Counted from the first letter of the stretch, positions 31,674 through 38,756 are shown. The stretch is DNA of 64,000 nucleotides from Escherichia coli (GCF_048403405.1 NZ_CP183129.1); one strand, 5' to 3'. Program-made: numbers and translations. The notes: generated by a model from the sequence alone, not told the origin.

Positions 31674-32810
31674 ATGGATCTATTGATTGTTTTAACTTAC
31701 GTGGCGCTGGCGTGGGCGGTCTTTAAAATCTTCCGCATTCCGGTGAATCAGTGGACGCTGGCGACGGCGGCGCTGGGAGGCGTGTTTCTGGTGAGTGGTT
31801 TGATTTTGTTGATGAACTACAACCACCCTTACACTTTTACCGCGCAAAAGGCAGTGATAGCGATCCCCATCACGCCACAGGTGACGGGAATTGTTACTGA
31901 AGTCACTGACAAGAATAATCAGCTTATTCAAAAGGGCGAGGTGCTTTTTAAACTCGACCCGGTTCGTTACCAGGCGCGAGTTGACAGACTTCAGGCTGAC
32001 CTGATGACGGCGACGCATAATATAAAGACGCTGCGCGCGCAGCTCTCTGAAGCGCAGGCCAACACCACCCAGGTTTCAGCGGAGCGCGACCGTCTGTTTA
32101 AAAATTATCAACGTTATCTGAAAGGCAGCCAGGCGGCGGTGAATCCGTTCTCGGAACGTGACATCGACGATGCGCGGCAAAACTTCCTCGCGCAGGACGC
32201 GCTGGTGAAAGGCTCGGTGGCGGAGCAGGCGCAGATCCAGAGCCAGCTCGACAGTATGGTTAACGGCGAGCAATCGCAGATTGTGAGCTTAAGAGCGCAA
32301 CTTACTGAAGCAAAATATAACCTTGAGCAGACTGTCATTCGCGCGCCGAGCAATGGCTACGTTACTCAGGTACTGATCCGCCCAGGTACATACGCAGCTG
32401 CCTTGCCGTTGCGTCCGGTGATGGTTTTCATCCCCGAGCAAAAACGGCAAATTGTCGCCCAATTTCGGCAAAACTCGCTGTTACGTCTGAAACCCGGCGA
32501 TGATGCGGAAGTGGTGTTTAACGCGCTACCTGGGCAGGTGTTCCACGGCAAACTGACTAGCATTTTACCTGTCGTGCCAGGCGGTTCTTATCAGGCGCAG
32601 GGGGTATTGCAATCATTAACGGTCGTGCCCGGCACGGACGGTGTGCTGGGAACCATTGAACTGGACCCTAACGATGATATCGATGCCTTACCCGACGGCA
32701 TCTACGCCCAGGTGGCGGTTTACTCCGACCATTTCAGCCATGTTTCGGTGATGCGGAAAGTGCTGCTAAGAATGACCAGCTGGATGCATTATCTTTATTT
32801 GGATCATTGA
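31674..32810 (+). CDS. yibH: HlyD-family membrane-fusion-like protein
   Basis: 378 aa; N-terminal TM helix, coiled coil, beta-barrel region; 3 bp after yibI; paralogue of yiaV. Confidence 0.85.
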
Positions 32811-33267
32811 GGGGGGCGGGGGAGATTATGGAACTTTGCTCCCTGCAAGGACTAATTATTTTTGCATATTATTTCATCGGCTGTGATGATTTTTCGTTAA
32901 TATCCATTATGTTAAGAAGTTCGGGATGAGTGTGAACTCATTGGATTTTTTATCCGTCTTGATCTGCCGAAGGATCAGACTATACATTGTCGAGATCGCA
33001 ATGATGATATGAGTTGTTCCTCTGCCACGGCTCTAATCAAAAAAGAGCAGGAGTGCTTTTCCATCTATTGCGATGATGGCTTTATTATCTGAAGGATGAC
33101 AGTCACATTTAAAAATATTTAATTTATAGATCACAATGTAGGTTCATGTAATATATGTATACAACTATTTTTCTCTTCACTTTTAATTATCGTATTCATT
33201 ATAACACTAAGTTAAAAAAACTCCTGGAGAGTGAGTTATTAATATGTTTTTAAATATAATTAAGTTA

Positions 33268-33789
33268 TTATTCATCGATGCATTTTATAGAATCATCAAT
33301 GGCTACAATAGTACTATTAACTCTCCAATTTATATTTTTATTATCATTGCAAATATTAACTGAATCTATATCAATGATTTTTTTATTTTTATCTTTTATT
33401 TTGTTTACAGTTTCAATGCAATCAGCGACAAGTTGGTGTGGATTTAGATTCTTCAGATATGGTCTTATGATCTTTCCCTTGCTTAATAAATAGCATGTAT
33501 AGGATTCGGAAAGTCCAGCATCTATTTTGTACATCATTATTCTAGATAAGGATGTGAGAAATGCCTTGTTATCATTAGCAGCCATATATGCCAGTCCGAG
33601 TTCAGCCTCTGCGGCTTTACATGAAAAATAGCTAAGTGAACACGCTTTTCGTCCCTCTTGGGTACTGGCTGATATTAGTGCCCATAATATTGCCTTGTCT
33701 GCCAAATCCAACTCTCTCTGAAATTGGTTTACAGTAACTGCATTCGCAGAAATAGAGAAGAAAAGCACAATTGTTAATAACCTTGTCAT
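33268..33789 (-). CDS. Exported Cys-containing protein of unknown function (candidate orphan immunity protein)
   Basis: 173 aa; signal peptide with likely cleavage after ANA; 7 Cys; very AT-rich gene between the Rhs module and yibH. Confidence 0.5.
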   Translation of the reverse strand: MTRLLTIVLFFSISANAVTVNQFQRELDLADKAILWALISASTQEGRKACSLSYFSCKAAEAELGLAYMAANDNKAFLTSLSRIMMYKIDAGLSESYTCYLLSKGKIIRPYLKNLNPHQLVADCIETVNKIKDKNKKIIDIDSVNICNDNKNINWRVNSTIVAIDDSIKCIDE

Positions 33790-34157
33790 ATTTCTAGTCC
33801 GTCACTGTTAATGTGCTATCTGGCTCTGAAAATATTAGCTCATTTAATTTTTGCATGTCATTAGATGAACCAGTTATACAACCCTCGGAACAGAATCGAG
33901 GTCCTAAAGATGGACCAAAAGCGTTTAAACAACTATGTGTTAAAAATCCATCACGATTATACGTTTCTGTATTTGCTGACGGTACTAAACGTATACCATT
34001 AGGTTTTCTATTGGTTGCTCCAGGACTGTTAAGCAAGCCTCGTCCGGTTTGCTTCATTGAGTTCTCCACTTTAGACTATTGGACTATCTTTCAACATGGC
34101 ATCGCCTTAGTATACCGCTGGTTTTCCGCTCATTGTTAATTTTCTCTTTCGTTCATT

Positions 34158-34568
34158 TCACTTAATTTTCAGTTTTTTCCAAAAGTCAATATTCCCTTCT
34201 AATAAAATTTTTTCTATGGAATCTTCATTAATTTTATTATTAGAGCATATGACATTATCTTGAACGCCATATGACACCACCCCGTTTTTATCAATATAAT
34301 ATCTGTCTTTACCATCAATAATATAAATCCTAACATTTTTATCATCAAAATGGTAACACTCATTACTAGACCTGTTCAGTAACATTAATAACTTCTCACG
34401 ATTTATCTGTAATAATTTTTGTGCACCATCTTTTATTGCAAAATTTTCAATTTTACTTTTAGTGACAGGGGAATATGTTTGGATGCGAAAAGGCATCCTA
34501 TAATGGAAAACATCAGCTATACAGCAAGATGAAAAAAATACGGAAATAAAATACAGACATACTTTCAT
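34158..34568 (-). CDS. Putative exported immunity protein cognate to the Rhs C-terminal toxin
   Basis: 136 aa; hydrophobic N-terminus MKVCLYFISVFFSSCC; starts 57 bp after the rhs stop, same strand, with GGAG RBS; AT-rich like the rhs tip. Confidence 0.55.
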   Translation of the reverse strand: MKVCLYFISVFFSSCCIADVFHYRMPFRIQTYSPVTKSKIENFAIKDGAQKLLQINREKLLMLLNRSSNECYHFDDKNVRIYIIDGKDRYYIDKNGVVSYGVQDNVICSNNKINEDSIEKILLEGNIDFWKKLKIK

Positions 34569-34625
34569 ACCATCTCCTAAACTGGTGATATATTAAAAAC
34601 ATACCCAAAAGCAATATAAAAATGT

Positions 34626-37600
34626 TTAATATTTCATTCTTGCTGGCAAGCCCAACTCTTTACGAAATGGGTTTTCATATTTATCAACATTAGCCATCGA
34701 GTCAGTTCCATCGTCTTTCATTCCCTTTGCATGCCCCATTTCATGCGCAAGAACCACACTCAACAGAGTGGGTTTCATGGCACATGCTTTGTTTTTTCCT
34801 TGATATACACATGAGCTATGGTCGTTATCAATATCAATGTAAAAACTATATTCAGTATCATCGTAGCATGTTTGGTTTATGCCTTTTCTTAATCCTCTAA
34901 ATATATATTCATGCTCTGATGACTCTAATTCTTCTGTTATTTTATGTCCAAACTTTGTTTCTGCTACAGCTTTATATGCTTCTTTTAAAGTTTTTTGTGT
35001 ACTTTCATCTCCCTGAAAAGACACTTTTAACCCTAATGGATCGAAACCAGATACCGGATTCAACGGATACTGATAAAAATTCCATCCCCCCTTAAGCCCA
35101 ATCGGATCCTGAGTGATATACCGCCCCTGCAGCGGGTCATAATAGCGGTGGCGGTTGTAATAGAGGCCGGACTCCTCATCATACTGCTGACCCGGCAGGC
35201 GGATGAGCTGCTGCAGCTGGTGCGGGTTCTCTTCATTCAGCAGGTTGCCCCATTCATCGTATTCTGCGCACCATTCTGTTGCCCCTTCCGTGCTGACAAG
35301 CGCCAGCGGCAGGCCGCGATGGTCGCAGTGGTACAGGTGGATTTTTCGCGCCGGCGTGTACACCGGGTCCATCTGGTTTTGTATCTGCTCCACCGTCAGG
35401 CCGCACGATGCCAGCCAGCGGCGGCTTTCCTCACTCACCCGGTCAGCCAGGATTTCACTTTCCAGCCGGTCGAGCATCTGCACCAGCACCGGCGGGAACA
35501 CCACACTGCCACCGTCTTCACCGCCGGACTGCTGAAGCGCATCCGCCAGGCTGCGGCGCTGCGTTTTCGCCAGCTCACCGGTGGCAGTTTCAACTCTGAT
35601 GAGTGGCGTGAAGCTCCCCGGCTGATAAACCGTCTGGATGCGGGTTCTGTCGTTCTGTATTGTGGTCAGCCGGTCGCCGTCCCAGCCGTACCAGGTCACT
35701 TCCGGTTTCCGTGACAGCGACATCCAGCCCGTCAGGTCCCGTTCACGCCGCCACACCCGTTTTGCCACCCTGCGGCCCAGCGGGTCGTAAAGATAGCGAC
35801 TTTCGACCAGCGGCTCTGCATATTGTGTCCGCGTGTAGTGCACCAGCCGGTGCCGGCTGTCGTAATGGTACCGGTGAGTCCGCTCATCATCCGTACGGAT
35901 AACCCCTTCCGGGATGAGGTCGGTTTTCTCCGTCAGCCTGCCGTGACGGTCATACCGGTAAAGATAGTGCGCGTCACGGGCGATACGGTTATCCGGCCAC
36001 ATGCTGAGGGTGCTGTCCGGGTGCAGCTCCGGGTCGGGCAGGCGGTTACCTGCCGGGTCCGTGGCATACGGGATGCGGATATCCAGATTCGCTGCGGTGG
36101 TGTGGACGCCGGTCAGCCTGCCGGTGTCGCTGTAGCTGTAACTCCGGGTCTGGCGCGGGCTGCTGATGCGGATGAGTTCGCCGTTGTCGTTCCAGGTGTA
36201 ATCGCGGTCATACTGCAGGCTGTTCAGGTGCTGGCTCTGTAACTGCCCGGCAGAGGTGTAAGCGGTGGTGAGTTCATAACGGCCGAAGCTGCGCAGCGTT
36301 TCCCGGTGCAGGCGGTCGCGGGTGAAATCCACCAGCGGTGTGTCGCCGAGTTTCATGCCTGACAGCCAGCCGCTGCCGTAGGTCAGCCATTCCACGGCGG
36401 GCAGGCTGTCCGGTATACAGCGGTTCGCCAGTCCCTGCGCGTTGTACGCATGTCTGGTTTCATGCTGCCAGAGCAGTGCTTCCGTCTGCGGGTGATGCAC
36501 CGTCTGGCGCTCACCGGTCAGGCGGCCTTTCTCATCATACCCGTAATGCACCGTCACCCGGTGGCCTTCGCTGAGATGGCTGATGCCTGTCAGCCAGCCG
36601 CGTTCGTCATACTGCCACTGCTCTGCAGGTTCACCCTTCACGGTGCGGTGAGTGAGGCGGTCTGCTTCGTCATAGTGCCAGTGGGTGACCAGCCCCTCAT
36701 CCTCGCTGCGGATAAGTTTACCGGTCAGGTCGTGGTGATAACGCTGTGTGCGGCCGTCAAAGCCGGTTTCCTGTATCAGCCGGTCAAGTACATCGTAACG
36801 GAAGGTGGTGTGGCTGCCGTTTTCACTGGTCAGGCGGATGACCCGCCCGGCAGCATCGTATTCCATACTGCGCGTCAGACCGCCCTGCGTGGTACGAACG
36901 GGCTTTCCCCACGCATCGTACTGTGTCCCGTTTCTGCTGCCGTCCGGGGCAATGACGGCGGTCAGGTCACCGGCGGCGTTGTATTCATACCGCGTTTCAT
37001 GGCCCTGCGTGTCTTTCACCGCAATTAACTGTCCACGGCTGTCGTATGCGCGGTACTGACTCAGCCCTTCCTCGCGGTGCACCGCCGTCACCTGACCAAA
37101 ACGGTCATGGTCATAACGGGTTACATAACCGGAACAGTCAGTGACGGTCAGCAACTGACCGTAACGGCTCCATGTCATGGTTTTCCGGCTGCCGGTGGCA
37201 TCTTCCGTTGCGCAGGGTAAGTCACTGTGTGGATTATCATAACGGTAGCGGGTGATATCGCCGTTGTGTGCGGTTTCCTGAATCAGACGGCCGGATTCAT
37301 CATATTTGCGGCGCAACTCCAGCCCGTCAGTCCCGGTGGCTGACGTTAACTGGTTGTGGTGGTTATAGTAAAATGCCGATGCCCTGCCATCCGGTGTGGT
37401 GATGCGCGTGATGAGTCCCGTCACCACATCCGGGCTGTACTCAGTCGTCCGGCCTGCGGCATCCGTCTGTGCCTTAAGCCCGCCCACCGCGTCAAACTGA
37501 CTCTGCGTGACGCTGCCGTCCGCGTGTTCCTTTTTCACCACCCGCTTCAGCCCGCCTTCGCCCTGCGTGTGCAGCACTTCACGGCGGTCCAGACTGTCGG

Positions 37601-38756
37601 TGATGGTGATGCGGTCTTTCTCATACTGATACGTGTAGCTTAAGCCTGCCGGGTTTAGCTGTTCTGTCACCCGCCCGTCGCTGTCGTAACGGTAACGGAT
37701 ATCCGGCCGGCCCGTGTGACGGTGCGCCACCATCCGGCCCCGGTATTTATCATCGTAAGTAAAGCTGCGCACCTGTGTATTGCTGCGGTCATACACCGCC
37801 GCCAGTTCGCCGCGTGGCGTCCAGCCATAGCGCACCAGCGGCGCGGCAGGTAAATTCTCCGGGTATTCCGGGTCGTGCGTCAGCCACACGGCAGACAGAC
37901 GGATGCCGTTGTCCCGGCCATATTCGGTGTAACCCGGCAGGGTATCAGGAAAAACGGACGGTTCCGCCCCGCCGGAAGAGGCCTGCTGCCGGGCTTCTTC
38001 TGCCCGCTGCGCCTGCGTGGTCAGTACCAGCCGGAAGTGACGCCCGGCACCATCCGTCACGCCGGTGATTTCGCCGCCAGCCTCACGGTGGAACGTCTGT
38101 GTGCGCCCGAAGCGGTCCACCAGCCCGGTCAGTACCCGGTACGGCGGCAGCGGCGCGGGCAGCACCTCATCCGCCTCCGGCACCTGCTCACACCAGCCGA
38201 GTACCCACCACGGCCCCTGCGGACTGTTTGTCGCCAGATAACGATGCGGACTCAGGCGGAGTTCTTCCGGCAGCGCCTGCCAGAGTGCGGCCAGCCGGTG
38301 ACCTTCATCCAGTTTCAGGACACCGCCACGCACCAGCCAGAGTGATTCGCTGCGGCTGTAACCGTCCTCACCGGGAAACAGGTGCTCAAAATACAGGCTC
38401 CTGCCGCCGTTATCACTGAGTATCAGTGTGTTATCGCGCAGCTGTAGGCGGATATCCGCAGGCATTTTCCAGCCGGGGCCGAGGCTCCCCACCGGCGCGG
38501 GCGTTTTTGTCCGGTAACTGCTGTAGGTGCGGGAGAGGATGAACGGCAGCGGGCCGGGCAGGGCAAGGTCGGTTTCGCCGGGAAGGACCTTCGCACCGAG
38601 CAGCGGATTGACCGGATGGCCGGACGTCACCCCGCCGGGGCACACCGAACAGGCCACGCCGGTGGGGGCACCAATACGTACCCCGGCAGAACCCTGAACA
38701 ATGCTACCGCCATACTGCGTCATGTCGCCCTGACGCGCCGCCGGTTTTCCGCTCAT
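34626..38756 (-). CDS. Rhs-family polymorphic toxin with PAAR-like N-terminus and HExxH metallopeptidase-like C-terminal tip
   Basis: 1376 aa; Gly-rich PAAR-like N-terminal region; many YD repeats; core ends ...DPIGL...DPLGL; 133-aa tail contains [20 protein letters not shown] (HEMGH coded at 34728-34745); GC-rich core switches to AT-rich coding at ~35030. Confidence 0.85.

Follow-up and report, generated by a model that had tools for sequence, protein, structure and literature searches.

An orphan Imm57 immunity gene beside a truncated Tlde1 toxin remnant at the distal end of the rhsA locus of Escherichia coli

Introduction

Poole et al. (2011, PLoS Genet, PMC3150448) described orphan rhs-CT/rhsI modules, which lie downstream of rhs genes and typically keep some Rhs core sequence and the DPxGL region. 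Salmonella Typhimurium encodes in SPI-6 a toxin–immunity pair, Tlde1/Tldi1 (originally Tae5/Tai5; Sibinelli-Sousa et al., 2020, bioRxiv 10.1101/2020.02.18.954545; Lorente Cobo et al., 2022, PMC9638812), whose toxin belongs to the DUF2778 superfamily. Tlde1 was shown to be toxic in the periplasm and fusions of Rhs to DUF2778 were reported in the same study (Sibinelli-Sousa et al., 2020). Rhs-fused members of the superfamily have been described mainly in the ‘Tae7’ family, with Imm57 mentioned as a linked family of immunity proteins, and a Rhs–Tlde1 toxin of Shigella sonnei (WP_052983304.1) is cited as well (Sibinelli-Sousa et al., 2020). Imm57 itself was described as a mostly α-helical family with conserved D, SE and C residues, and was linked to Tox-LD-peptidase toxins (Zhang et al., 2012, PMC3482391). 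The mentions of Imm57 in the literature searched are computational, the family having been defined by comparative genomics, and we found no experimental report on Imm57 proteins.

Here we analyze positions 32811-34157 of a stretch of 64,000 nucleotides from Escherichia coli (NZ_CP183129.1), which is called the window below. We consider it about 80% probable that this region forms the distal and oldest part of the rhsA locus and contains an orphan Rhs toxin/immunity module that has been displaced and in which the immunity half alone still functions.

Results

The region lies in the rhsA locus of E. coli and adjoins two core genes of the plus strand, yibI and yibH (yibH at 31674-32810). All the features that we recognize in 32811-34157 are on the minus strand: an Imm57 gene, a Tlde1 remnant, a scrap of an rhs 5′ end and an ISAs1 fragment. 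Read along that strand, the order is an rhs gene (34626-38756), a 136-aa gene (34158-34568), the Tlde1 remnant and then the Imm57 gene. A first-pass annotation of this DNA had named yibH, a Rhs module and a putative immunity gene as the neighbours of the stretch and had described the DNA between the immunity gene and yibH as AT-rich, and both descriptions are borne out; the GC content of 32811-34157 is 35.0%, where the window as a whole has 51.4% and yibH 53.1%. The annotation had also marked a patch of higher GC. This patch is real (38.6% in 33790-34157, compared with 33.7% in the adjoining ORF and intergenic DNA), but the difference is modest and the patch remains far under the genome average. 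Overlapping ORFs that had been noted there on both strands do exist (33794-34069 on the minus strand and 33813-34139 on the plus strand), yet they had been called unassignable, and this part of the description fails: the minus-strand ORF is the Tlde1 remnant, and the plus-strand ORF is its antisense shadow.

CFSAN061763 is 100% identical to the window over the 2 kb from 32700 to 34700, and at least 80% of this segment is covered in 180 of 5426 complete E. coli genomes. Many strains part from the window right after the stop codon of yibH, and the DNA there is AT-rich accessory DNA. No Rfam family matched 32600-34700 at an E-value of up to 1. Promoter-like sites in the region number 10, with 9.9 expected in shuffled sequence, which is no excess, and no terminator was found between the modules, the counts of promoter and terminator motifs being equal to the shuffled expectation.

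The gene at 33268-33789 (minus strand) is an intact orphan immunity gene of the Imm57 family, 173 aa long, as assigned by Pfam (PF15596) and by the PGAP name. The protein matches PF15596 with an E-value of 2e-44 (150 bits) over positions 2-100 of the 100 in the model, with its residues 30-127 aligned, and PGAP calls it ‘Imm57 family immunity protein’ (WP_000197506.1). The element is of a known kind and is rightly named by PGAP. Its N-terminus, MTRLLTIVLFFSISANA|VT, contains one Arg, a 10-residue window with a mean Kyte-Doolittle hydropathy of 2.87 and an A-x-A site; it looks like a Sec signal peptide, with predicted cleavage after A-N-A17. The protein had been described earlier as a 173-aa signal-peptide protein with seven cysteines, of which the coordinates and the signal-peptide-like N-terminus stand, but the cysteines are six, at positions 50, 57, 99, 124, 147 and 170.

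Among 1.84 billion cluster representatives 177 relatives were recovered, and 81 diverse ones, with 21-48% identity, were aligned. The six cysteines and D90 are invariant or nearly so, each being present in 73-81 of the 81 homologues. D90 is invariant and C99 is found in 79 of the 81, within the consensus D-G-x-L-S-E-D-Y-x-C, and an N-terminal hydrophobic segment is also found in 79 of them. This pattern of conservation fits an exported protein with three disulfides, and we infer both export and disulfides from it. The structure prediction that had been proposed for the 173-aa protein gave an AlphaFold2 model of high confidence (pLDDT 94.4), which is all-α with eight helices and has no strands of three or more residues. 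The protein therefore shows the mostly α-helical fold and the conserved D, SE and C by which the family was described, and the model is in line with that description. When the model was compared with the PDB by Foldseek no significant match was found (best E = 0.23, TM-score at most 0.31), a sequence search of the PDB returned nothing relevant and no family of NCBIfam matches the protein.

Upstream of the Imm57 gene, from 33794 to ~34033 on the minus strand, tblastn and DNA alignment reveal an orphan rhs-CT gene that has been truncated and that belongs to the Tlde1/DUF2778 L,D-peptidase toxin family. The first-pass annotation had advised that the patch be searched for remnants of Rhs C-terminal toxins, and such a remnant is what the search yielded. 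The reference is strain FDAARGOS_1285, in which an intact gene lies upstream of Imm57; it encodes a 135-aa ‘tlde1 domain-containing protein’ (WP_072020486.1) and has a Rhs core fragment before it. Residues 57-135 of this intact protein match 34033-33797 with 97.5% identity (tblastn, E = 2e-49), and the DNA alignment of the window to its gene begins only at ~34030, running downwards. Residues 57-135 of 135 are left, which makes the remnant the 3′ 58% of the gene. The first 56 residues, which include the N-terminal third of the domain, are gone, and the conserved N-terminal block VASGNNG / CKNNPxC / NRGPIPxGxW is missing. The intact E. coli relative matches the Pfam domain Tlde1_dom (PF10908) with an E-value of 2.2e-7 over residues 31-120; when 12 members of the family were scanned with PF10908, nine were found at E ≤ 0.001 and all 12, the remnant of the window included, at E ≤ 0.1. 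Since the complete domain is no longer present, 33794-34033 is a remnant of the Tlde1/DUF2778 family and not a functional member of it.

It had also been suggested that a DPxGL-encoding remnant might be found in the patch, and none survives in the window. Neither Rhs core nor DPxGL sequence is present between 34033 and 34157, and the toxin gene is cut inside the toxin domain. With the Rhs core, the DPxGL motif and the N-terminal block lost, the toxin cannot be delivered and very probably cannot fold. Other E. coli strains with the same module have 100-400 bp of Rhs core upstream of the toxin gene, and in homologues from Ralstonia, an Acidobacteriaceae genome and metagenomes the Tlde1 domain sits immediately behind the DPxGL end of Rhs proteins.

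The remnant still has the residues H89, S90, C91, C104, G107 and C108, which are invariant in the family. Its His is encoded at 33935-33937 and the sequence S-E-G-C (S105-E106-G107-C108) at 33878-33889, at invariant or nearly invariant positions, and together they form the motif H-x15-SxGC, with 19 residues from His to Cys. This resembles the L,D-transpeptidase motif quoted by Sibinelli-Sousa et al. (2020), and on the basis of that published motif the His and Cys of the family may be catalytic. For the intact relative the structure model is poor (pLDDT 59.7). When it was searched by Foldseek, L,D-transpeptidases were the top four matches and five of the first seven, all of them non-significant (E = 0.77-4.7, TM-score at most 0.29). 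A PDB search with the intact protein and with the family profile gave nothing relevant, the profile matching only the DPxGL end of Rhs proteins, and no NCBIfam family matches the protein.

Like the Salmonella Tlde1/Tldi1 pair, the E. coli pair combines a PF10908 domain with an immunity protein of the periplasm that carries a Sec signal, which for Imm57 is a prediction. The two pairs differ in several respects. The E. coli rhs-CT version is so remote from Salmonella Tlde1a that neither phmmer nor a family profile arrives at the PDB entry of the latter, and the spacing between His and Cys is 19 in the E. coli rhs-CT, like that of classical YkuD enzymes, whereas it is 10 in Tlde1a (H121 to C131). 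The immunity protein is Imm57 in the window but a DUF2195-type Tldi1 in Salmonella, and the toxin of the window is truncated.

A Tlde1_dom gene, with an intact toxin in each case, is followed by an Imm57 gene within 0-4 nt in four independent settings: in E. coli (FDAARGOS_1285), in Ralstonia pseudosolanacearum, in an Acidobacteriaceae genome and in a metagenome contig in which the toxin is ~50% and the immunity protein 39% identical. This conserved adjacency supports Tlde1 and Imm57 as a cognate pair, and it matches the link that was drawn from comparative genomics (Zhang et al., 2012) and the Rhs fusions of DUF2778 noted by Sibinelli-Sousa et al. (2020). The window retains the same arrangement, as the stop codon of the remnant (TAG, 33794-33796) is 4 nt ahead of the Imm57 start codon, which places the immunity gene directly against an L,D-peptidase-domain toxin gene. 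The first-pass annotation had proposed that the stretch is made of a displaced Rhs C-terminal toxin fragment with a periplasmic immunity protein, and the match over the full length of the Imm57 model, together with the Tlde1 remnant directly upstream, upholds this. It had further suggested that the protein may be a second periplasmic immunity protein or inhibitor; the protein does belong to an immunity family, but it is the partner of a different and now dead toxin, not of the resident Rhs toxin.

From ~34027 to 34156, again on the minus strand, blastn and local alignment identify the decayed 5′ end of an rhs gene, with its leader and the first ~35 codons. The scrap has a leader of ~23 nt, a pseudo-start ATG at 34133 (MSGKPAVY*) and its first stop codon (TAA) at 34107-34109. 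By blastn it is 75% identical over 83 nt to the starts of genes for ‘RHS element core protein’ in 50 genomes (E = 2e-4 against 28 Gb); its local alignment score of 61 is reached by none of 1000 shuffles (mean 15.8, sd 2.3). A 28-mer taken from the scrap has no exact match in 100,044 species-representative genomes. This rhs 5′ end, in the upstream ~125 bp of the patch, had been missed in the earlier reading of the sequence.

The scrap and the Tlde1 remnant join at ~34020-34032 through a shared string, TTAAyrGTCCTGG, and so short a string suggests an illegitimate join. We also considered tandem rhs genes followed by an internal deletion as the origin of this junction. This is less likely, because the scrap is only ~75% identical to known E. 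coli rhs starts and contains stop codons, while the Tlde1 part is 97-99% identical to intact copies. Translation across the junction gives a chimeric ORF of 87 aa (MKQTGRGLLNSPGATN...; 33794-34057, minus strand), whose first ~8 codons come from the rhs-5′-like fragment and the remainder from the Tlde1 remnant. A GGAG is found 6 nt upstream of its ATG. Some depositors annotate the 87-aa product (P0205, 53 member sequences) and PGAP leaves the ORF unannotated; it is probably a non-functional by-product of the junction.

On the yibH side of the Imm57 gene, blastn and tblastn locate a decayed internal fragment of a transposase gene of the ISAs1 family (H-repeat / ISEc1-like) at 32899-33104 on the minus strand. 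The DNA is ~79% identical to ydcC/ISAs1 transposase genes, and in translation the identity is 57% over 65 aa (E = 3e-21), with an in-frame stop. The fragment covers approximately residues 96-160 of 378 and, with about 65 of the 378 codons and an internal stop, it is not an ISAs1 element in the sense of a transposase gene with element ends. PGAP annotates the fragment as an incomplete pseudogene in Z142-4, a strain that shares the gene order of the window at this locus and has identical yibH, Imm57 and immunity proteins. The transposase fragment in this intergenic DNA had been overlooked in the earlier analysis.

The resident rhs gene (34626-38756, minus strand) is full-length; its ORF encodes 1376 aa, with the NCBIfam domains RHS_core and Rhs_assc_core before the toxin region, and the N-terminal start of the product resembles that of a PAAR domain. 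The C-terminal toxin region is AT-rich, follows DPLGL and carries a HEMGH motif, with a weak match to Peptidase_M91 (E = 0.0023). Directly after it comes the 136-aa ORF (34158-34568, minus strand), whose position makes it the presumed cognate immunity partner of the HExxH toxin; the protein has no match in Pfam or NCBIfam. The 136-aa gene and the HExxH toxin region occur together in 180 of the 5426 genomes, in near-identical E. coli loci only, and the cassette looks like a recent single acquisition. A 67%-identical copy of the 136-aa gene is found in Escherichia albertii at the end of another Rhs array, after a gene for a 384-aa RHS-domain protein and a 149-aa gene. That locus shares only the 136-aa gene with the window and has no rhs 5′ scrap downstream.

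The Imm57 gene is found in 3683 of the 5426 complete E. coli genomes (68%) and is absent from the other 1743 (32%). Most carriers (3367 genomes) have a K-12-like allele that is ~93% identical to the one in the window, and 275 genomes have the allele of the window (≥99% identical). The K-12-type copies are annotated as frameshifted in all seven of the carriers sampled, and the gene is a pseudogene in the K-12, B and C strains. Three K-12-type copies that were aligned share a 1-nt deletion at nt 25, and two other genomes have a 5-nt deletion (nt 384-388). The gene has therefore been pseudogenised by at least two independent events, the first being the deletion at nt 25, with or without an additional A at nt 405, and the second the 5-nt deletion. 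Such frameshifts in carriers indicate that E. coli often does without Imm57. The allele of the window is intact in all six copies examined, namely the window and five genomes. When the two E. coli alleles are compared with each other, dN/dS is 0.29-0.31, and among copies of the window's allele it is 0.13; values as low as these indicate that Imm57 was under purifying selection, and functional, for most of the history of the gene.

The nearest counterpart is the end of the rhsA locus in K-12, which has the orthologous position by yibH, 93% identity over 32700-34025 and the same order of ISAs1 fragment, Imm57 and Tlde1. In K-12 the Imm57 gene has two frameshifts, and Tlde1 is full-length in extent with internal stops; in the window Imm57 is intact and Tlde1 has been truncated by a different event. 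We take the Imm57 part of the K-12 locus to be yibV and the H-repeat remnant downstream to be yibU. An alignment of the region to the K-12 genes yibA and yibG had been named as an outcome that would speak against a toxin–immunity module, and the K-12 DNA that does align is neither of these genes but a decayed Tlde1/Imm57 module.

The window resembles the orphan modules of Poole et al. (2011) in that the module is distal to the main rhs/immunity pair, is AT-rich, consists of a toxin fragment and then a small immunity gene, and is common to strains whose main rhs toxins differ. Unlike those orphans, which keep the core and DPxGL, the module of the window is cut inside the toxin domain and fused to an rhs 5′ scrap. 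By this comparison the orphan of the window is a dead one.

A second comparison is offered by a 55%-identical Imm57 homologue whose neighbours are lone immunity-type genes as well, the array comprising two Imm57, Rap1a and MafI2. Such arrays of orphan immunity genes presumably correspond to islands of the ‘acquired interbacterial defence’ type. The window shares with them an immunity gene that is kept without its toxin, as seen for the Imm57 homologue with Rap1a and MafI2, but it differs from multi-immunity mobile islands in being a single orphan that was left in situ by toxin replacement.

Discussion

From these data the following course of events can be suggested. An ancestral rhs gene, or an rhs-CT fragment, would have ended in a Tlde1-type L,D-carboxypeptidase/transpeptidase domain with the Imm57 gene next to it, and toxins of this type would attack the stem peptides of peptidoglycan in the periplasm of the target cell. 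A newer cassette, composed of the HExxH toxin tip, the 136-aa immunity gene and a piece from the 5′ end of another rhs gene, may then have taken the expressed position, and an illegitimate junction at ~34020-34032 would have deleted the Rhs core together with residues 1-56 of Tlde1. The rhs 5′ scrap and the ISAs1 fragment we regard as inert debris of past rearrangements. What would be left is an orphan immunity gene that offers protection but no weapon. The protein it encodes probably leaves the cytoplasm by the Sec pathway and is probably held by three disulfides, and once exported it would act in the periplasm by binding and blocking Tlde1-type toxins that are injected by competing enterobacteria through type VI secretion systems.

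Whether the intact gene does anything today is the point at which the readings separate. One option, which we put forward tentatively and without leaning on it, is that Imm57 is actively maintained and expressed in this lineage, either by read-through from the rhs gene or from the captured leader scrap, and protects against Tlde1-armed enterobacteria. The main rival is that the module, the intact Imm57 ORF included, is a fossil: unexpressed debris that has acquired no disabling mutation yet and that confers no protection. The decay seen elsewhere would agree with this, as the gene has been inactivated by at least two independent events and frameshifts disrupt it in every one of the seven carriers of the common allele that were sampled, and so would the dead state of the cognate toxin in the window, the lack of an excess of promoter-like sites and the lack of a terminator between the modules. 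However, a dN/dS of 0.13-0.3 speaks against debris, and the six copies of the window's allele are all intact despite an A-rich, slippage-prone tract at 33376-33390. The native 4-nt junction between the toxin stop and the immunity start is preserved as well, and lone Imm57 genes stand in the immunity-gene arrays of other bacteria. On this evidence we regard the fossil explanation as unlikely.

The Tlde1 remnant and Imm57 could also be thought of as a silent cassette, a kind of reserve ammunition that recombines into the resident rhs gene in order to switch its toxin. Orphan modules with an rhs core are thought to be reusable in this way (Poole et al., 2011), and other strains do retain their 100-400 bp of Rhs core upstream of the same toxin gene. 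In the window, however, there is neither Rhs core homology nor DPxGL upstream and the toxin is without its first 56 residues, invariant motifs included. Homologous recombination therefore cannot rebuild a working toxin, and for the window such a role is highly improbable and effectively refuted. The least probable explanation of all, that the 173-aa protein serves a conserved housekeeping function in the periplasm or is a general enzyme inhibitor, in either case unrelated to Rhs toxins, could draw on its signal peptide, its conserved cysteines and its position next to the core genes yibH and yibI, but it is rejected on the distribution of a gene that is absent from 1743 of 5426 complete genomes, decayed in K-12, B and C strains, always downstream of Tlde1-type rhs-CT genes or in immunity arrays, and placed in AT-rich accessory DNA where many strains diverge straight after yibH.

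The reading that we prefer, a displaced Tlde1/Imm57 module with only its immunity half working, explains the AT-rich stretch that seemed unassignable as the debris of successive toxin replacements at the rhsA locus. The Cys-rich protein with its predicted export signal does not represent a new protein class. The Tlde1/Imm57 pair is an old resident of the rhsA locus; 68% of complete E. coli genomes have it, for the most part in a decayed state. The coexistence of intact and frameshifted Imm57 alleles in E. coli provides a convenient system in which to ask if orphan immunity genes are kept by selection. Should Imm57 prove to be maintained and expressed, the locus would offer a natural test of ‘defence without offence’, and it would for the first time open to functional study the Imm57 family, for whose predicted fold there is no solved relative.

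In the window, the DNA between yibH and the Imm57 immunity gene contains an internal fragment of an ISAs1/H-repeat transposase (32899-33104, minus strand), which is 57% identical in amino acids to residues 96-160 of YdcC and is interrupted by a single internal stop. Many E. coli genomes cease to be homologous to the window at the stop codon of yibH, and therefore the DNA from yibH to Imm57 is part of the accessory Rhs island. Just 3' of the Imm57 stop, the minus strand also carries the promoter-like hexamers TTAACT ... GATAAT (33186-33215), which face the ISAs1 fragment and run antisense to yibH. They are the same hexamers as those given for an RpoD holoenzyme binding site that genomic SELEX placed between yibV and yibU in K-12 (PMC3946193). 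This promoter-like site is probably spurious and lies within AT-rich DNA.

The toxin tip of the resident Rhs protein, which follows the DPLGL motif (34626-35050, minus strand), carries an HEMGH motif and matches Peptidase_M91 only weakly (E=0.0023). It is followed by a gene for a 136-aa protein (34158-34568, minus strand), the presumed immunity protein, whose N-terminus is hydrophobic and contains a Cys (MKVCLYFISVFFSSCC) and for which no family was found in Pfam or NCBIfam. Of 5426 E. coli genomes, only 180 carry the cassette made of this toxin tip and the 136-aa gene, and in Escherichia albertii a copy of the 136-aa gene with 67% identity ends a different Rhs array. The 136-aa gene is followed immediately by a decayed rhs leader with the first ~35 codons (34027-34156, minus strand), a scrap that is joined to the Tlde1 remnant (the truncated orphan toxin gene). 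An exact 28-mer of this scrap has 0 occurrences in 100,044 species-representative genomes. One possible option is that the scrap was imported together with the HExxH cassette; alternatively, it may be the relic of a tandem rhs gene that was removed by deletion.

The indels that disable Imm57 in other strains concentrate in homopolymer or A-rich tracts, which in window coordinates lie at 33376-33390 (gene nt ~384-405) and 33765 (gene nt 25) on the minus strand. The K-12 gene has one additional A in an A5TA7 run, the O166:H15 and elppa4 genes have lost five nucleotides (AAACA), and the common K-12-type allele has lost one nucleotide beside a run of T within the codons for the signal peptide. These tracts look like slippage hot spots.

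Imm57-type genes are also seen in an enterobacterial-looking Logan contig (SRR31736489, 5268-13170), where ~10 small genes, all on one strand, include two of Imm57 type, one Rap1a-type, one DUF7668 and one MafI2-type gene. For none of these genes does the record list a toxin-type Pfam domain, and the array looks like a multi-immunity island.

In E. coli O166:H15 JNE21-009 and in elppa4 the decay state is the reverse of that in the window: about 400 bp of Rhs core precedes an intact tlde1 orphan ORF, and it is the Imm57 gene that carries a frameshift. An intact tlde1 beside a broken Imm57 can be tolerated only as long as the cell does not express the orphan toxin or does not export it.
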